From Burkholderiales bacterium (GTDB lineage Bacteria > Pseudomonadota > Gammaproteobacteria > Burkholderiales > SG8-39), in contig JBFFEY010000011.1 in NCBI GenBank assembly GCA_041558415.1, positions 3,927-67,926 on the forward strand: a stretch of DNA of 64,000 bases. Reading direction: 5' to 3'. Numbering within the stretch: position 1 is the stretch's first letter; each line of letters starts with the position of its first letter. A model generated the notes under the pieces. It did no database searches, was not told where the DNA came from, and was given only the letters and a program-made list of their open reading frames with translations. The position numbers and the translations under genes are program-made. Shown here piece by piece: positions 22,801 through 64,000 of the stretch.

Positions 22801-22885
22801 GCGCGCGCGCGCGCCGGGGCTGCGCCTGCTGCGCTGCCACGCCGCGGCGACGCGCGCGGAATGCATCGAGGCGCTCGGCGGCTAG
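19880..22885 (+). CDS. Large membrane protein with spermidine-synthase-like (class I SAM-binding) domain
   Basis: N-terminal multi-TM region (SGFAGLIYE, GATFPL, YAANTLGAI), then IGIGTGLT, DAKTF, VSEPSNPW, FTREFY. Start overlaps the SDR stop (ATGA). Confidence 0.8.
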   Translation: MKPDAAATRAGPDVLPPRAAFYALFTASGFAGLIYESIWTHYLKLFLGHAAYAQSLVLAVFMGGMAIGAALAGRRSTRLANPLLGYALVEAIVGGLALVFHELFVATTDWAYVALLPALGDASFALGAKLLLACALILPQSILLGATFPLMSAGLVRAQPAAQGESIAMLYFANSLGAAAGVLTSGFVLIAWVGLPGTLRSAGVINLCLAAIVWMLARPVHHRPLAARAGGARAAPLQLAVAFFTGLASFVYEISWIRMLALVLGASTHSFELMLSTFILGLALGGLAVRRRADRLPRPARALGWIQLTMGLLALATLPLYHLTFDVMARLMDALTRSETGYLLFNLAGQGLSAFIMLPVTFCAGMTLPLITVALLRDGAGEAAIGRVYAANTLGAIAGVLFALHIGLPGLGLKGTLLAGALVDVLLGLVLLRHTALGPRVLAAAAAAGAALFLPLALAFELDANKMTAGVFRHGDLESSRDAEILFAADGKTATVHLVAYPGAVSLRTNGKSDGSIANPDRPRGTDEITMVLTAALPLALKPNARQAAVIGIGTGLTSHTLLQDLDLERVDTIEIESKMAEAARGFLPRNAATFADGRGHIMIDDAKTFFSTHGRRYDIVVSEPSNPWVSGVSSLFTREFYARIRAHLNRGGLLVQWFQLYEIDPSMLATVMVALGEAFPHYAIYAPSDHDVLIMASDAPVSRAPQAGIFEQPGIAKELWTVDVLSIGDLDARYLGDRATLEPLFASYAMPANSDYAPILDLNAAKQRFMDRSATGVVGLLNQGVPILELLEPGRSARPINPLYKGAHAFTRIENARRARYALDFLLGTVPPAPENIATDLQKDLEIVQLRLLGCQSPRSLDVWLHALLRVAGAINPYVAADEAAALWSKVLAAPCVATLHAFQRKWIALFAAVGARDAARMAELGEDLLSTQPTLSSDAREYLLLATMGGALVRGEARRAAALWDRYAPGLLRARAPGLRLLRCHAAATRAECIEALGG

Positions 22886-23475
22886 CGGGCGCGCGCCAGG
22901 CGCACGGCGCCGAGCACCTCGCGCACGAACGCCGCGACCGCCGCCTCGCCGCGCGGCAGCTGGGAGAAGTGGCCGTCGAGCAGCAGCTGCGCGAGACCAT
23001 GGGTCAGCGACCAGGCTGCGGCGGCGGCGATCGGCGCCCCGCTCGCCCCGGTCACGGCCTCGAAGGCGCGCAGCAGTCCGGCATAGGTCTGCGCGGCCGC
23101 CGCGCGCAGCGCGGGATAGGCGTCAAGCGGCAGCAGACCGCCGAACATCAGCCGGAAGCGCGCCGGGTTGCGGAGGGCGAACTGCACGTAGGCCTCGCCG
23201 CGCGCACGCGGCCCGCCCGCGGCGGCGGCAAGCGCCTCGTCGAGCCGCGCAAAACCCTGGGCCGCGAGCGCCGCGAGCAGCGCGTCGCGGTCGGCGAAAT
23301 GGCGATAGGGGGCGTTGTGCGACACCCCCGCGCGGCGCGCGGCTTCCCGCAGGCTCAGATCGGCACCCCCCCGTTCCTCGAGCAGTTCGCCTGCAGCCTG
23401 CAGGATCGCCGCACGCAGTTCCCCATGGTGGTAAGAGCCCCGGCTGTCGCGTTTCCTGCGAAATGATGTTGACAT
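22882..23475 (-). CDS. TetR/AcrR family transcriptional regulator
   Basis: YHHGELRAAIL...LSLREAARRAGVSHNAPYRHF HTH; C-terminal AWSLTHGLA. Start ATG 23475. Confidence 0.92.
   Translation of the reverse strand: MSTSFRRKRDSRGSYHHGELRAAILQAAGELLEERGGADLSLREAARRAGVSHNAPYRHFADRDALLAALAAQGFARLDEALAAAAGGPRARGEAYVQFALRNPARFRLMFGGLLPLDAYPALRAAAAQTYAGLLRAFEAVTGASGAPIAAAAAWSLTHGLAQLLLDGHFSQLPRGEAAVAAFVREVLGAVRLARAR

Positions 23476-44959: not shown

Positions 44960-44967
<8 letters not shown>
44239..44967 (-). CDS. SDR family oxidoreductase (atypical)
   Basis: GAGDATG, FNVGAN, TGATASLRG, VAHVVIDG. Confidence 0.88.
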
Positions 44968-50053
<5,086 letters not shown>

Positions 50054-50182
50054 GCCCTCCCCCAACAAAACGCGTGATCGCGCAGTGTAACCCCACGCCC
50101 GATCAATCCGGCGTGGCGCGCGCGATCTGCGCTATGCTTCGCTGCCGCACGCGGTGCGGCCAACCACCACAACAGGAACCCC

Positions 50183-52909: not shown

Positions 52910-53386
52910 CTATTTTTTCGCCTGCGCCTCGAGGAAGTTGACCATGCGCACCACGTCGGTCGCCTCGACGCGGCCAATGGGCCCGGAGCTGTAGGTCGCA
53001 CTCAGAACCTTGCCGCCCTGCCCAATGAGGAACTCCGAGGGCTGGATGACCTGGCGCTTGTCCTCCCACCAGGAACCCAGCTGCTCGGCCTGCGCGCGCG
53101 TCACGCCGTAGCCCACAGGGAAGCTGAGCGCGGCAGCCACTTCCTTCGCCTTGTCGAGCGGATCGACGCTCGCCGCGAAGACTTTGACGCCCGCCGCAGT
53201 GAGCTGCGCCTTCCAGAATTCGAAGCCGGCCAACTGCCGGCGGCAGTACGGTCACCAGTGCCCGCGGTAGAACAGGATGACCTTGTACTTGGCGTCGATT
53301 CCGTCGGGCAGCTCGAGCGTGCTGCCGTCGACCAGGCTTAGCGTCATCTTCGGAAAGACGTCGCCGGTGTTCAGCTTTTGCGCCAT
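52910..53386 (-). CDS. Selenocysteine-containing peroxiredoxin-like (AhpC/TSA, UxxC) protein, 158 aa, Sec45
   Basis: ATG 53386 with SD GGGAGGG. MAQKLNTGDVFP...VILFYRGHW-(TGA 53254-53252)-PYCRRQL continues in frame into the ORF-track fragment 52910-53233. SECIS-like hairpin follows; adjacent to selC. Confidence 0.9.
53225..53254 (-). promoter_or_regulatory. Putative bacterial SECIS element (peroxiredoxin)
   Basis: UGA-CCGUACUGCC-[GCCGGC-AGUUG-GCCGGC]. Confidence 0.7.
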
Positions 53387-53413
53387 CGCCTCACCCTCCC
53401 GATGCGCATGATA

Positions 53414-53509
53414 TGGCGGAAAAGAGTGGGAGTCGAACCCACCAGGGACGTCTGACGCCCCTCACTGGATTTGAAGTCCAGGCGCCCCACCGGGGTGCGA
53501 TTCTCTTCC
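53414..53509 (-). tRNA. selC: tRNA-Sec (anticodon UCA), 96 nt
   Basis: 8-bp acceptor stem GGAAGAGA/UCUUUUCC, discriminator G plus CCA, anticodon arm CUGGA-CUUCAAA-UCCAG, long variable arm AGGGGCG-UCAGA-CGUCCCU, T arm GUGGG-UUCGACU-CCCAC. Confidence 0.97.
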
Positions 53510-55393
53510 GTGCTGGTCGCGCTGCAGCACGTGCGCATCGCCCTTGCGTCGGGTGAATTTTATCCGGTCGAAGAACTCGAGCACCTCGATCGTGAGGTTG
53601 CGCCCGATGCCCGAGCGGTCGCGGAACGCCGCCGCGGTGATCGCGCCGCTGGCGTGCGCCTCCTCTTCCGCGAGTTGTTCGAGACGGCGCAGTGCCGCAG
53701 GCAGGAAGAAGCGCGTTTTCGAAACGCGCACCAGCAAACCCTGACGCTCGAGACGTGACAGCGCGGCCTCGAGTCTGCGCGGATCGGTCGCGAGCGTTGC
53801 GGCCAGCTCGACGACGCTCGGCGCACGCAAGGCGCTCGATGCGAGCAGCGGTTCGACCTTCTGCCACAGCGCGGCATCGGCGGCGCTGAGCTGAATCCGA
53901 TGCTCCGCCAGACGCAGGCCCGCGCCGTCACGCACGACCCTGCCCTCGCTCACCAGCGACTCGATGAGCGTCGTCAGCGCCGCGCGCGGCAGGCGCAGGC
54001 CGCTGCCCTCGAGCAGGCGGGATTCCGGCGGACCGGCGCTGTCCGGCGCCCGGCGGTGCCAGGCGGTGAGCGCTTCGAGCGCCTTGGCGCGCAGCGCATC
54101 CCAGTGCGCCGGTGAAAAACCCCAGTCGCCGGCGCGCTGTACGGGCAAGCGCTCGGCCAGCGCCACGGCGGCGGCTGGCGTCAGGTTGCGATTCATCGCG
54201 AAGCGCGTCAGGTCGACGCCCTCGGCTGCCTGCGCCAGCAACGCCCCGAGCGCCGCGGCGGGATCGTCGAGCACCTGCGCGGCGAGCGCGGCGAGGCGCT
54301 CGGGCCGCGCCCGGCCGCGCGCCGGCGGAAAGACGTCGATCACGCGACCGCCGGCGAGCGTGCGCCGCGCGGACTGGTCGCGCAGGATGAAGCCGTCGCC
54401 GAACAGCGCGCCGAGTGGGCGGTCGAGCACGAGCTGCACCAGGCCCGCGGCGCCCGGCGCGATGCTGTCGCCCTCGAGCAGCGCGACGCGGCCGATGACG
54501 TTGGCGGCGCCGAGGTGGACGTGCACCGGCGTCCAGTGCGCGAGCGGCTTTGCCTCGTCCGCCAGCACGCGCAACCGCGCGTCGAACTTGCGCACCGCCG
54601 CAGGCACGTCGCCGGCGACGATCCAGTCGCCCCGCTCGATCGCCGTCTTATCGCCGAGCCCGGCGAGATTGAGCGCACAACGCTGCCCCGCAACGCCCCG
54701 CTGCGCCGCCGCGTTCTGCGCATGGATCGCGCGCACGCGCGCCGACTGTCCCGCGAGCAGCGCACGCACCGCGTCGCCGACGCGGATTGCGCCGCTCACG
54801 ACCGTGCCGGTCACGACCAGGCCGGCGCCGGCAATGGTGAAGGTGCGGTCGACCGCGAGGCGGAAGTTGCCCTCGTCTGTCCGCGGCCGCAGCGCCTGCG
54901 CCGCCGCTTGCAGATGCGCCTTCAGCGCGGCGACGCCGTGACCGCCGAGGCTCGAGAGCGGAAACACGGGCGCGGCGCGCAGAGCGGTCGGCGCGAGCAG
55001 CGCGGCGAGCAGCGCCTTGACTTCGGCCACGCGCGCGTCGCTCACGCGATCGATCTTGGTGAGCGCCACCGCGCCCTGTGATACCCCCAGCAGGTCGAGG
55101 ATCGCCAGGTGCTCGCGCGTCTGCGGCATCGGCCCGTCGTCGGCGGCGACGACGAGCAGCGCAAAGTCGATGCCCGCGACGCCGGACAGCATGTTGTGCA
55201 CGAAGCGCTCGTGGCCGGGCACGTCGACGAAGCCGATCGTCTGCGCGTCGTCCACGGGGAGGTAAGCGAAGCCGAGGTCGATCGTCAGGCCGCGCTTTTT
55301 CTCCTCCGGCAGGCGATCGGTGTCGACGCCGGTGAGCGCGCGCACCAGGCTGGTCTTGCCGTGGTCGACGTGGCCCGCCGTGGCGACGATCAC
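53462..55393 (-). CDS. selB: Selenocysteine-specific elongation factor
   Basis: [31 protein letters not shown]; C-terminal winged helix [24 protein letters not shown] start overlaps the selA stop; last 16 codons lie inside selC. Confidence 0.97.
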
Positions 55394-56766
55394 GCGCCCT
55401 CCAGCTGCGCGGCGAAGCGCGCTTCGTCGGCCGGCTCCAGGCCGCGCAGGTCGAGAATCAGGGCACCGTCCTGCAGGCGGCCGATGACCGGAACCGGCAG
55501 CGCGCGAAACGCGGTGGCAAGGCGCGTCGTGCCCGGGCGCAGCGCGAGCCCCGCGCTCGCGAGGTGCTGGCGCGGCGCCGCCCCGCTGCCGACCTCGCTC
55601 TCGCAGTCGATCACGCTCACCTCGACGCCCGGCTTGGCCCAGGCGGCCAGCCGCGGGCGCAGGCGATCGGCCATCGTGCGGAGGTCCGCCACCGATCGCG
55701 CCAGGCGACGCAGCACGGGCAGGCGCGTCGCCACGCGCTCGGGATCCTGGTAGAGCCGCAACACCGCGGCGAGCGCCGCCACGGTGAGCTTGTCGACGCG
55801 CAGCGCGCGCTTCAGCGGGTTGCGCCGCAGCCGGGCGACGAGATCCGCGCGCCCGACGATGATCCCCGCCTGCGGGCCGCCGAGCAGCTTGTCGCCGCTG
55901 AAGCTAACCAGGTCGGCGCCCTGCGCGATGGCCTGCGCCGGGGTCGGCTCGGCCGGCAGGCCGAAGCGCCGCAGGTCGACCAGCGTGCCGCTGCCGAGAT
56001 CGACCACGAAGGGCACGCCCCGCGCGCGGCACAGCGTGGCGAGGTCGCGCTCGGCGACCGCCGCGGTAAAGCCCTCGATGGCGTAGTTGCTGGCGTGCGC
56101 CTTCAGCACCAGCCCGGTCTTCGATCCGATCGCCTGCGCGAAATCGTCGAGATGCGTGCGGTTGGTCGTGCCGACTTCGCGCAGCCTGCAGCCCGCGCGC
56201 TGCATGAGGTCCGGCAGACGGAACGAGCCGCCGATCTCGATCAGCTCGCCGCGCGAGACCGGCACTTCCTTGCGCTTGGCGAGCGTGTTCAGCATCAGCA
56301 GCACCGCGGCCGCGTTGTTGTTCACCACGGTGGCCGCCGGTGCGCCGGTCAGCGCGCACAGCAGCCGTTCGAGGTGATGGTCGCGCTCGCCGCGCCGGCC
56401 CGTGGCGAGGTCGTACTCCAGATTCGTCGCCTCGCGCGCGGCCTCGCACAGTGCGTCGATCGCCTCCTCGGGCAGCGGCGCGCGACCGAGATTGGTGTGC
56501 AGCAGCGTGCCGGTGAGGTTGAACACCGGGCGCAGCGAGGAACGCGCCTGCTGCGCGAGGCGCTCGGCGACGCGGCCGACGACGGCGTGCGCCACGTCCT
56601 GCGGCAGGGCCGCGCGCGCGCTGCGCAGGTCATCGAGCACGCCGCGGATCGCGTCGGTCACCGCCGCGCGGCCGTAGGCGGCGATCAGCGCGTCGGCTTC
56701 CGGCCGCCGCAGCAAACGGTCGACCGAGGGCAGCGCGGCAAGTGCGGAAGCGCGTGAATCCACCAT
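55390..56766 (-). CDS. selA: L-seryl-tRNA(Sec) selenium transferase
   Basis: [58 protein letters not shown]. Start ATG 56766. Confidence 0.97.
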
Positions 56767-56833: not shown

Positions 56834-57610
56834 ATGCGTGCCGAGACGCCCGTCGATCCCGTCGCCCTGCGCGAGGAGGTCAAGATCAAGTACCGCGAAG
56901 TCGCCTGCAATCCGCAGGGCAAGTACCACTTTCACACCGGCCGGCGCCTGGCGAGGCGCCTGGGCTACGACGACGCGGTCGTCGCGCGCATGCCGGACGA
57001 GGCGGTCGAGTCCTTCGCCGGGGTCGCCAACCCGTTCGCGCTGCGCGCGCTCGCGCCCGGCGAGACCGTCGTCGACGTCGGCTCGGGCGCGGGCTTCGAC
57101 TGCTTCATCGCCGCGCAGCAGGTCGGCGCCGGCGGAAAGGTGGTCGGCGTCGACATGCTCGAGGAAATGCTGCAGAAGGCGCGCGCCAGTGCCGCGCGCA
57201 TGGGTCTGACGAATGTCGAATTCCGCGCGGGCCTGATCGAGGCGATGCCGGTCGAGGACGGCTGGGCCGACGTCGTCATCAGCAACGGCGTCATGAACCT
57301 GTGCGCCGACAAGAAAAAGGCGTTCGCGGAGATCTGGCGCGTGCTCAAGCCCGGCGGGCGGCTGCAGTTCGCCGATATCGCCAACGGCAAGCCCGTGCCG
57401 GAAGCGGCCATCCGCAACATCGATCTCTGGACCGCTTGAATCGCCGGCGGCCTTCCGTGTGAAGGCTGGCGGGCGATGCTGGAGCAGATCGGCTTCGTCG
57501 AGGTGCAGATCGGCGCGCCCTGCGACACCTTCGGCGAGGCCGCCGGCGAGAAGAACGCGCGCAGCTTCGAGGTCTACGGCTACCCGTTCCTCGCGCGCAA
57601 GCCGACGTAA
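56834..57610 (+). CDS. Selenocysteine-containing ArsM-like SAM-dependent methyltransferase, 258 aa, Sec202
   Basis: Motif [29 protein letters not shown]-(TGA 57437-57439)[24 protein letters not shown]...[12 protein letters not shown] continues as a plausible ArsM-type C-terminus. SECIS-like hairpin follows; divergent from selA. Confidence 0.85.
57437..57471 (+). promoter_or_regulatory. Putative bacterial SECIS element (methyltransferase)
   Basis: UGA-AUCGCCGGCG-[GCCUUC-CGUGU-GAAGGC]-UGGCG, with possible lower stem CGCCG/UGGCG. Confidence 0.75.
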
Positions 57611-61224: not shown

Positions 61225-62925
61225 TCAGCGCCCCCGGCTCGCCGCGAGGCGCCGTTGCGCCGCCGGCTGATAGCTCGCCAGCCATTCGCCCAGCGCCACA
61301 TTGCCGGCGCGCGCCGCAAGCTGTGCCGGTGTGCGCCGCAGGTAGCGCGCGCCGCGGTCGGCGCCATGGTCTAGCAGCAGCGCCGCCAGTGCGCGATCGC
61401 CCTGCAGGATCGCCTGGTGCAGCGGCATGCGGCCGAACTGATCGCGCGCGTTCACAGTCGCGCCGGCCTCGAGCAGGGCCTGCACGCTCGCGGCCTCGCC
61501 GCTCTCAACCGCAAGGTGCAGCGGCATTGTGCCGTAACGGTCGCCTGCACCGGGGTCGGCGCCGTGGCGCAGCAGCCGCGCGATCACCGCCGCGTGCCCA
61601 CCGCGCGCCGCGGCGTGCAGCGGCGCCTCGCCGTCGATGTCGCGCGCGTTCGGGTTCTCCGCCGCGTCGATCAGCTGCCGCACCGTGTCGAGCTGCCCCT
61701 CGCGCGCGGCCCACCACAATGCCGTTCGGCCGAAGCGGTCGCTGCCCGGCCAGCTGCCCGCGGGTGCGCTCGCCGCTGCGTCATCAGGGCGCGCCGCGCC
61801 GCCCTCGAAACAGGTCGTCGCGATGCTGACGCGGTCGGGCCCGTCGTTGCGGTAGCCGTAGGGCTCGCCGTAGAAGGTCGAAAGGTCTTGCTCCAGCGCC
61901 TCGAACTGCTCGCGCGTGCGCAGCCGGCCGCGCGCATCGCGATACCAGTCGAGCAGGTCGTAGCAGCGCTCGCGCAGAACCGCCTGCACGCGCTCCCCGA
62001 CCGGGCCGAGGTAGCCGTTCGGGTTGAGCGCCTCGTTGAAGTGCGGCGTGACGAAGACGGCGAAGAAGTCCGAGCCGGGCTGCACGCGGTTGCCGAGCCG
62101 CCAGTAGACGCCGTCGCGCTCGAGCATGGGCGGCAGCGGCCGCTCGCCGATGCGCACCGGCTCGGTGAGGTTGCGATAGAACTTAAACCCGGCATAGTCC
62201 GCCGCGAGATCGCCATTCGAGCGGATGCCGGTGCTGATCGTGCCGAGAAAGCCGTTCTCGGAGAGGAACGGGTTGGCGCCGGCCGACACGTCGACCGTGC
62301 GCGTCAGCGCCTGCGCCTCGTCCAGCCCCTCGGCGCGCGCCTCGAGGTATTCGGCATGGTAGATCCTGCCGAGGTGGAAAAAGTGCAGGAACTTGTCGGT
62401 GCCGAACAGCGTGCCGCCGACGTTCACCGAAGAGCTGCGGAAGAAGGTGCGCACGAACTTGGTGATGTCGATGAGCAGCAGCGGGTCGTCGTAGATCAGC
62501 TGCTCCGGGCGGTAGACGACGACCAGCCCCGGGTAGCGCATGCGCGTCGTTTCGACGCCCAGCTCGGCGTCCAGCATCTCGTTGGTGGGCATCGCGGCGA
62601 AGACTTCGTACCAGACCTGACCGGCGATGAACCCGGGGGACTGGTACCAGCTGGTGTCCCAGGTCGGTTTGCCGTTCGCCAGCGACTTGCGGATTTCCGC
62701 GTTCGTCGTCTGCACCGCCGCGGCGATGGCATCGTGCACCATGCGCGAGAAGTGCAGGCGCAGGTCGGCGAATTCCTGGCCGAGCGGCAGCGTGTACTGA
62801 TCGGTCTCGTGCGCGTCGGCGCTCGGCGACAGCGCGGCGATAAGGCCGAGCGAGATCACTGCCAGAAGATGCTTCAAGGTCGGGCGCCGAACGCTCGACA
62901 CGGCCTGCAGTGGGCGCATACGCAT
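61225..62925 (-). CDS. Exported protein with unknown N-terminal domain and C-terminal ankyrin repeats
   Basis: Signal peptide ...ALSPSADA/HETDQ. Ankyrin motifs GRTALWWAA, GEAPLHAAA, GTMPLHLAV, GRMPLHQAI, RTPAQLAA. Start uncertain. Confidence 0.85.
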   Translation of the reverse strand: MRMRPLQAVSSVRRPTLKHLLAVISLGLIAALSPSADAHETDQYTLPLGQEFADLRLHFSRMVHDAIAAAVQTTNAEIRKSLANGKPTWDTSWYQSPGFIAGQVWYEVFAAMPTNEMLDAELGVETTRMRYPGLVVVYRPEQLIYDDPLLLIDITKFVRTFFRSSSVNVGGTLFGTDKFLHFFHLGRIYHAEYLEARAEGLDEAQALTRTVDVSAGANPFLSENGFLGTISTGIRSNGDLAADYAGFKFYRNLTEPVRIGERPLPPMLERDGVYWRLGNRVQPGSDFFAVFVTPHFNEALNPNGYLGPVGERVQAVLRERCYDLLDWYRDARGRLRTREQFEALEQDLSTFYGEPYGYRNDGPDRVSIATTCFEGGAARPDDAAASAPAGSWPGSDRFGRTALWWAAREGQLDTVRQLIDAAENPNARDIDGEAPLHAAARGGHAAVIARLLRHGADPGAGDRYGTMPLHLAVESGEAASVQALLEAGATVNARDQFGRMPLHQAILQGDRALAALLLDHGADRGARYLRRTPAQLAARAGNVALGEWLASYQPAAQRRLAASRGR

Positions 62926-62989
62926 CGCGATCTCGAGTTTGCCAGAAACGCGACGCGGCGGTCGCGCCGCGCAGCAGCGCGTCCTTCGC

Positions 62990-64000
62990 CTACGTTCGCA
63001 GGAAGGCGAGCACTTCCTCCACGAAGCGGCCGAACGCGGGATCGTGCTCGAGAAGCATATGGTTCTTGCTCTGCAGGGGCACCAGTCGCGCTCCGGGAAT
63101 CCCCGCCGCCATGCGGCGCCCCAGGTCGAATGGCGCGCGCGCGTCATCGCGGGCGTGCAGCACCAGGGTCGGCACCCTGACTCGCGACAGCAGCGGCGCC
63201 ACGTCGACGTCGGCGACCGCCTGCAGATAGCGCACCGCGTTCTCGGGCGAGGTCGCGCGTCGCTGCAGCTCGTTGAACCAGTCGACCTGCTCGCGGCTCG
63301 CCTCCGGCATGAATTGCGAGGTGAACATCTGGCGAAAGGCCGGGTTGTCCTGGCCCCAGCCGAGCCGCGTCAGCGTCAGCATCGCGGCGAAAGCCTCCTT
63401 CTGGCTCTCTGGGGCTGCCCGCCGATTGATGCCTTGTGCGAAGCCGCCGTACAGCACGAGCTGCGACACGCGCTCGGGATGGCGCACCGCATACGCGATC
63501 GACACCGAGCAGCCCTGCGAGATACCGAGCAGCGCGAAGCGCTCGACCCCGGCGGCGTCCACCACGGTTTCCAGATCGCCGACCCAGGCGTCGAACGAAA
63601 TGTCCTCGACGTCCCAGTCCGACAGGCCGTTGGCGCGCGCGTCGTAGCGCAGCAGCGTGTGCTCCCTCGAGAGCGTGGTCCACAGGTGCCGCCGCGTAGG
63701 GCTCTCCATCTCGTATTCGAGGTGCGTCATCCAGTTGCCGGTCTTCACCAGTGGCGGACCGCTGCCGATCGACGCGTAGGCCAGCTGCACGCCGTCGCGC
63801 GCCGTGCAGAAGCGGATGTCCTGCTCGACGACGTCGGCCGCCGCGGCGGGCGTCGAGGCGGGCGCCGGGCCCGCCGCGCGCTTGACGCGGAATGCGCGCA
63901 CCGGCTCGGCGATGTTCTTCACCTTTTGCTCGCCCAGGTCTTCAAACGCCGCGACGACCTTGCCGCGCACGGCACCGCGTATCGAATCCGAGACCGCGAC
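62990..64000 (-). CDS. Adenylate/guanylate cyclase-like domain fused to alpha/beta hydrolase (3' part; start beyond window)
   Basis: DLGEQKVKNIAEPVRAF (end of class III cyclase-like domain), then YDARANGLSD, GISQG nucleophile elbow, VPTLVLH and HMLL. Frame open to the window end. Confidence 0.8.
   Translation of the reverse strand, partial: VAVSDSIRGAVRGKVVAAFEDLGEQKVKNIAEPVRAFRVKRAAGPAPASTPAAAADVVEQDIRFCTARDGVQLAYASIGSGPPLVKTGNWMTHLEYEMESPTRRHLWTTLSREHTLLRYDARANGLSDWDVEDISFDAWVGDLETVVDAAGVERFALLGISQGCSVSIAYAVRHPERVSQLVLYGGFAQGINRRAAPESQKEAFAAMLTLTRLGWGQDNPAFRQMFTSQFMPEASREQVDWFNELQRRATSPENAVRYLQAVADVDVAPLLSRVRVPTLVLHARDDARAPFDLGRRMAAGIPGARLVPLQSKNHMLLEHDPAFGRFVEEVLAFLRT

Follow-up and report, generated by a model that had tools for sequence, protein, structure and literature searches.

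In the window, by which we mean the whole stretch of 64,000 nucleotides analysed here, the coding sequence of selB runs into the adjacent tRNA-Sec gene selC on the same strand, and the stop codon of the protein is supplied by the tRNA. This is a genuine selB-selC overlap of the partial type already in print (Mukai 2021, Int J Mol Sci 22:4605, PMC8124441). Both the layout and the idea that a transcript yields either the protein or the tRNA were published in that 2021 study, and the reading put forward in the initial annotation of this DNA is an independent rediscovery of them. The host, an uncultured Burkholderiales known from a metagenome-assembled genome (MAG), is a new lineage for this overlap, because the Betaproteobacteria, although examined in PMC8124441, are not among the carriers that it lists. 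On balance we consider the overlap to be a tolerated, near-neutral product of a very tight selB-selC junction and not a demonstrably selected device.

The overlap lies in a set of four genes arranged head to tail on the minus strand, namely selA, selB, selC and a Prx-like gene for a putative selenoprotein. The features of the locus are the following.

55390..56766, minus strand: selA (selenocysteine synthase); Pfam SelA, 9.4e-153, and Se-cys_synth_N
53462..55393, minus strand: selB, 643 codons and TGA; from the ORF list, translation and Pfam
53510..53524, minus strand: linker QRDQH, 5 codons, from the last SelB winged-helix domain to tRNA nt 1
53462..53509, minus strand: selB-selC overlap of 48 nt, in which SelB residues 629-643 and the stop correspond to tRNA-Sec nt 1-48
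53462..53464, minus strand: selB stop TGA, tRNA nt 46-48; from the Rfam alignment
53414..53509, minus strand: selC, tRNA-Sec of 96 nt with CCA encoded; ARAGORN and Rfam RF01852
53472..53474, minus strand: anticodon TCA of selC; ARAGORN
53387..53413, minus strand: spacer of 27 nt between selC and the next gene, with a GGGAGGG Shine-Dalgarno-like motif
52910..53386, minus strand: Prx-like (AhpC/TSA) putative selenoprotein gene, 158 codons; Pfam AhpC-TSA, 1.3e-19

The selA reading frame stays open back to a TTG at 56922, and inspection of the candidate starts points to the ATG at 56766 as the probable start; its TGA overlaps the GTG start of selB by 4 nt (GTGA). SelB carries the Pfam domains GTP_EFTU, GTP_EFTU_D2, Beta-barrel_SelB, SelB-wing_2 and SelB-wing_3, and the bacterial SelB architecture is present, with an EF-Tu-like GTPase, domain II, a beta-barrel and the C-terminal winged-helix domains that bind the SECIS. 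The E. coli SelB of the ribosome structure 5LZB aligns with the window protein (E 1.5e-135) over residues 2-624 only, and the SelB-wing_3 match stops at residue 623. The conserved part of SelB extends to about residue 624, and the 15 extra residues sit past the end of the conserved SelB fold. The tRNA-Sec scores 75.4 bits against Rfam RF01852 (cut-off 47 bits), covering model positions 1-91 at 53418..53509, and a search of the 3.54-Mb genome gave no other tRNA-Sec that passes the Rfam cut-off. Its cloverleaf is kept, with compensatory changes, across 17 overlapping relatives, and we take it to be an intact and probably functional tRNA-Sec despite the overlap.

The description of the junction in the initial annotation is correct in both its parts. 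No stop interrupts selB before the tRNA-Sec gene on the same strand, the uninterrupted ORF extending over 53462..55393 and the tRNA over 53414..53509, both on the minus strand; and the last 15 SelB residues with their TGA are read from tRNA nt 1-48, nt 1 being the first base of a codon, with coordinates that are exact. Read on the minus strand, the 3' end of selB is ...CAG CAC and then, from the first tRNA nucleotide onwards, GGA AGA GAA TCG CAC CCC GGT GGG GCG CCT GGA CTT CAA ATC CAG TGA. Residue 629 is Gly (GGA, tRNA nt 1-3), and tRNA nt 1-45 encode residues 629-643. The shared stretch takes in the acceptor 5' strand, the D arm and the anticodon arm, and of the three bases of the TGA the first closes the 3' strand of the anticodon stem, the second is a linker base and the third opens the variable arm. 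The selB of the window ends at nt 48, and nesting of the whole tRNA, the alphaproteobacterial type, is not encountered there. A further 16 stop-free codons in an ORF are not improbable by chance; we take the overlap to be real because the junction recurs across relatives, and not because of the length of the ORF. Both the tRNA and the 15-residue SelB tail are genuine features, and an annotation of the locus should list the two.

Several arrangements of this kind have been described. In many Alphaproteobacteria selC is nested within selB, and partial selB-selC overlaps occur in Dyella/Luteibacter (Rhodanobacteraceae) and in a groundwater lineage of Nitrospirae (PMC8124441). In these published partial overlaps the selB stop is at tRNA nt 46-48 and the extensions begin with a Gly from GGA, and the model offered is that processing of the tRNA produces a non-stop selB mRNA, so that expression of SelB and expression of tRNA-Sec are alternatives (PMC8124441). 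Reviews of 2022 and 2026 still treat the coupling as a hypothesis and name Alpha- and Gammaproteobacteria and Nitrospirae as carriers. The junction of the window matches the Dyella/Luteibacter/Nitrospirae type in the shared strand, the Gly from GGA at nt 1-3 and the stop at nt 46-48, and the published description of Dyella/Luteibacter agrees further in that close relatives have a stop before selC and in the same RNase P and non-stop-mRNA model. It differs from them in its host, an uncultured Burkholderiales family, and in the Prx-like putative selenoprotein gene that follows selC. With the nested selC of the Alphaproteobacteria (e.g. Azorhizobium caulinodans; Mukai 2021) it shares the frame and the either/or logic, but the ORF of the window stops at nt 48 and does not pass through the whole tRNA to a downstream ORF. 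The window SelB is 50-63% identical to SelB of alphaproteobacterial MAGs.

To see how common the junction is, we compared relatives at increasing distance, the genomes compared being MAGs throughout. The nearest SelB loci, up to 69% identical, come from soil MAGs labelled Burkholderiales or Betaproteobacteria, and several of these are identical (100% matches) to contigs from members of the GTDB family of the window. Of the best 80 SelB loci from species-representative genomes, 12 share the 48-nt overlap of the window and have an intact long ORF. Within the genus of the window the overlap is found in three of the four other species; in the fourth, L102, the selB TGA lies 24 nt before selC. For the family as a whole all 317 species were searched, 120 of which have a tRNA-Sec, every locus was fetched, and 129 tRNA-Sec genes were classified, ARAGORN starts being moved by 1 nt where a call opened with a non-G followed by GG. 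The classes are as follows.

48-nt overlap: 24 of 129 tRNA-Sec genes
58-nt overlap, in which tRNA nt 1 is a third codon base and the variable loop contains the TGA: 14
Whole tRNA inside selB (L124 in the frame of the window, L206 and L214 in another): 3
11-nt overlap: 1
No overlap, the selB stop lying 2-154 nt ahead of selC (median about 14 nt): 28
selC not directly after selB: 47, a class that may be inflated where the SelB detection panel misses a very divergent SelB
selB more than 160 nt upstream or undeterminable: 12

Overlap is found in 42 of the 70 adjacent selB-selC pairs of the family, in at least four configurations. The window thus adds a new host lineage, uncultured soil Burkholderiales, in which overlap is the majority state of adjacent pairs, and the same family adds three further overlap configurations. 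The 58-nt type (L098, L153, L157, L164, L167, L168, L175, L176, L180, L186, L197, L212, L213 and L224) has a 93-nt tRNA-Sec (about 901-993 in most of these loci), a different frame and a SelB tail ending ...EEKRPRWGARTSNPERGV; it is conserved across one SelB clade and appears not to be described in PMC8124441. Nesting of the whole tRNA was found in three Burkholderiales genomes (L124:901-1017, L206:901-1009 and L214:901-1024), and in L206 and L214 it is unlike the alphaproteobacterial cases with GGA for Gly, since tRNA nt 1 falls on the third position of a codon. In the 11-nt overlap (L109:1501-1511) the selB TGA falls at tRNA nt 9-11. Among the junctions without overlap, the selB stop of L108 ends 2 nt before the tRNA, and in L089, L101, L105 and L111 selB stops 13-57 nt before selC with a stop derived from the winged-helix domain. 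In a collection of 5.8 billion proteins, the tRNA-encoded tail is present in 118 of the 121 proteins checked, that is, the query (SelB residues 560-643) and the 120 matches listed. One SelB homologue among the database matches, P0077, continues past the usual stop position (...GLQITTGTLTDQRLTK), which points to a tRNA variant that lacks the stop triplet at nt 46-48. Two tRNA-Sec genes are present in some genomes of the family (G213, G163, G081, G272 and G088); the pair in G213 (C49:21379-21468 and 22851-22940) is 1.4 kb apart, and only one of the two follows selB.

The distribution of the overlap was then placed on a SelB tree computed from the C-terminal 280 residues with the tRNA-encoded part removed (quick IQ-TREE searches, with SH-aLRT support only). 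The window belongs to a clade (SH-aLRT 99) of 27 distinct sequences from five genera, 21 of which have the 48-nt overlap. Because the six members without it lie scattered among overlapping sisters, the overlap must have been lost at least five times, once inside the genus of the window; the losses are seen in L102 (the genus of the window), L032, L178, L195 and L020, with selB and selC otherwise intact. All the 58-nt and nested cases fall in a second SelB clade (SH-aLRT 99), where they account for 16 of 20 members. Outside these clades there are isolated 48-nt cases, L088/L188 and L165 (with TAA instead of TGA) and three alphaproteobacterial MAGs. From this distribution on the tree we judge that the overlap is old in the clade of the window, has arisen more than once and is dispensable. 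The initial annotation had counted it as evidence against its reading if close relatives all stopped before selC; most of them keep the overlap.

The position of the stop can be traced to the tRNA. A stop triplet, mostly TGA, occupies nt 46-48 in 22 of 58 tRNA-Sec genes without a selB overlap, those of the closest non-overlapping relatives included. Since the triplet is present also in genes that are not overlapped, it belongs to the tRNA itself and did not evolve for selB. In the other two frames there is no stop inside the tRNA and the median first stop falls at nt 125-139, so that a short extension is possible only through the frame that begins at nt 1.

On a shared transcript this geometry would impose an alternative between the two products. 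RNase P cleaves at tRNA position +1 and frees tRNAs from polycistronic transcripts (PMC7049720), and tmRNA rescues ribosomes stuck on stop-less mRNAs (PMC3985003); the genome encodes both an RNase P RNA (222.7 bits, contig C10) and a tmRNA (contig C38, tag ANDERYALAA). We propose that selA, selB, selC and the Prx-like gene are carried by one transcript. A ribosome finishing selB would keep the 5' half of the tRNA unfolded, the terminating ribosome lying over about tRNA nt 30-60. Once the tRNA has folded, the RNase P cut at +1 would take away the last 16 codons of selB, including the stop, leaving a stop-less selAB message; ribosomes still on it would be rescued by tmRNA and their SelB would be tagged. 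A given RNA molecule would then stop giving releasable SelB once it gives tRNA-Sec. The alternative would be a necessary consequence of co-transcription plus the geometry of the overlap, and the coupling is probably a physical by-product that lowers the yield of SelB per transcript. The initial annotation had drawn the same either/or from the RNase P cut. Its geometry is sound, a cut at +1 removing 15 sense codons and the stop in a genome with RNase P RNA and tmRNA, but a regulatory role is not required by the comparative data. If the coupling were functional, it would mean a built-in balance of a dedicated elongation factor against its single tRNA, with processing of the tRNA acting as an off-switch for the mRNA.

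The near-neutral origin that we favour would work through two steps. Loss of the own stop of selB in the nt-1 frame would add only 15 residues, because this tRNA lineage has a built-in UGA/UAA at nt 46-48; and the overlapped state would persist, because the short GC-rich linker offers very few changes through which a new stop can be regained. The linkers average 6.6 codons, with 1.3 single-base changes that create a stop (two in the window), whereas of the nine single-base changes possible in a TGA eight abolish the stop; the mutational expectations are roughly 0.4 versus 2.7 per neutral substitution per site. At equal fitness, a mutation balance gives an expected overlap of about 86% at equilibrium in the nt-1 frame, compared with 78% observed in the clade of the window, a crude estimate that takes equal rates for all base changes, ignores indels and uses no measured divergence times. 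Since mutation balance predicts a similar prevalence, conservation alone is not evidence of selection. The conservation can be accounted for without selection, by the UGA of the tRNA itself and mutation bias, and this is a quantitative reason for caution. The non-overlapping junctions of the family are also tight (median spacer about 14 nt, range 2-154). Against a near-neutral origin, the overlap persists over the five genera of the clade, and it occurs in several frames within one family and in 42 of 70 adjacent pairs, which could equally mean repeated selection for coupling. Repeated origins in different frames and uniformly tiny spacers are also expected under selected coupling, and the comparative data do not decide between selection and drift.

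Selection for the coupling is accordingly the alternative that has to be weighed most carefully, and we regard it as a possible, if unlikely, explanation. In the form given by Mukai (2021), maturation of tRNA-Sec by RNase P would turn selB into a non-stop mRNA and cap SelB relative to tRNA-Sec, and the cap would prevent an excess of SelB from sequestering Sec-tRNA-Sec. The hypothesis is in print (PMC8124441), no shared transcript with this geometry could escape the either/or, and both RNase P RNA and tmRNA are encoded. Moreover, the overlap is ancestral to the SelB clade of the window and retained in 21 of its 27 members, the second clade keeps another overlap (58 nt or nesting of the whole tRNA) in 16 of 20, and the prevalence of overlap among adjacent pairs, in its several configurations, looks like convergence: in one Burkholderiales family selB ends in or beyond selC through overlaps of 48 nt, of 58 nt in another frame, of the whole tRNA in two frames and of 11 nt. 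On the other side stand the losses in the clade of the window with selB and selC otherwise intact, the dictation of the stop position by the tRNA and a prevalence close to the neutral mutation-balance expectation, and no experimental follow-up of the overlap model was found in the literature searched up to 2026. The specific idea of a selected, convergently evolved timer, in which excision of tRNA-Sec by RNase P silences the selB message and fixes the ratio of SelB to tRNA-Sec, strikes us as rather doubtful. If it were true, it would mean a general form of gene control by tRNA maturation, which is so far without an experimental demonstration in bacteria. The initial annotation had suggested a device for stoichiometry or feedback and, as a fallback, a harmless loss of the original stop. 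The geometric logic of the former survives, whereas the need for such a device is weakened by at least five losses, by a stop at nt 46-48 that is ordinary for the tRNA and by the comparison of about 86% with 78%; the fallback fits at least as well.

It is improbable that the overlap is irrelevant to expression, as would be the case if selC were transcribed mainly from a promoter of its own inside the 3' end of selB, and read-through from selAB into selC were rare or not a substrate of RNase P. In E. coli selC is transcribed on its own, and the promoter scan used here is insensitive. Nevertheless, that scan predicted no sigma-70-like site within 700 nt upstream of selC (minus strand), which is weak negative evidence against an internal selC promoter. 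Neither was a sigma-70-like promoter or a terminator predicted between selB and the Prx-like gene, where only the strict sigma-70 consensus was scanned, nor a terminator in the 27-nt spacer between selC and the Prx-like gene (53387..53413). Any selB transcript that has a stop must hold at least tRNA nt 1-48, and since no terminator is predicted, such a transcript would normally run through the whole tRNA.

Very improbable is an explanation at the level of the protein, in which the 15-residue tail is functional in SelB, contacting for example the ribosome, the SECIS or the tRNA, and it is this peptide that keeps the overlap in place. The tail is part of the SelB annotation in more than 100 database clusters and looks conserved, but this conservation mirrors that of the tRNA. 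Where pair 30:44 alternates between C-G and U-A, the last residue of SelB changes with it between Arg and Gln, the change in the codon of the partner base being silent. Because the variation of the tail peptide tracks the base-pair covariation of the tRNA, the constraint acts on the RNA and not on the peptide. In addition, solved SelB shows nothing that corresponds to the tail, close relatives, a congener included, do without it, and the tails of other clades are read from other frames and are quite different. An error of assembly or sequencing, such as a stop or frameshift missed just before selC near 53509, a possibility named in the initial annotation, can be regarded as refuted, because the identical junction geometry is found in dozens of independent assemblies, even though the MAG behind the window is fragmented (113 contigs).

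The preferred reading, a tolerated overlap whose coupling is a by-product, can be set beside systems in which tRNA maturation or SelB abundance is tied to a message. We know of no case in E. coli in which the stop of an upstream ORF lies inside a tRNA, so that cleavage in the E. coli operons would leave the upstream ORF its stop. In the mixed mRNA-tRNA operons of that species RNase P makes pre-tRNAs from polycistronic operons (Mohanty et al. 2020, PMC7049720), and in them, as proposed for the window, RNase P parts the tRNA from the upstream RNA of a shared transcript. The E. coli selAB mRNA has a SECIS-like element through which SelB regulates itself (Thanbichler and Bock 2002, cited in PMC8124441). 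The presumed purpose would be the same, to hold SelB down relative to Sec-tRNA-Sec, but the E. coli mechanism is translational repression through binding of SelB. In animal mitochondria tRNA genes overlap or are nested in protein genes, e.g. tRNA-Lys inside cox1 of Armadillidium vulgare (cited in PMC8124441). There, too, the tRNA lies within a coding sequence in direct orientation, and alternative processing has been put forward; however, those are compact organellar genomes with another processing machinery, and compaction is no obvious driver in the window.

The gene downstream of selC has an in-frame TGA at 53252..53254 that would place selenocysteine at residue 45, in the motif GHW-U-PYC (translated with TGA as U). 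This Prx-like gene very probably encodes a selenoprotein that ORF callers split in two, and it is probably the last gene of the selA-selB-selC unit. It follows selC in at least eight relatives that have the overlap. The fold of the region after its TGA is unremarkable (z-score -0.25). Beyond its own TGA the frame of selB is open through the remaining tRNA and continues in frame into the Prx-like gene (53386-53509, minus strand), so that in the window one TGA alone parts selB, selC and prx within a single frame. Read-through of selB into the Prx-like gene was considered and rejected: the in-frame continuity is found in only five of the eight relatives that have the gene and is taken as coincidence, and the sequence after the TGA lacks the geometry of the SECIS candidates of this locus (UGA, 10 nt and a 6-bp stem).

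Some minor observations concern the surroundings of these genes. The sole sigma-70-like match of the region (TCGACT, a 17-nt spacer and TATCAT, at 53408-53436 on the minus strand) sits in the T arm and 3' end of the tRNA, just 5' of the Prx-like gene, and may be due to chance. Near the selenium locus lie the genes for a 640-residue ankyrin-repeat protein (61225-63147, minus strand) and for a sensor histidine kinase of 1702 residues that contains six GAF and several PAS domains (44960-50068, minus strand).
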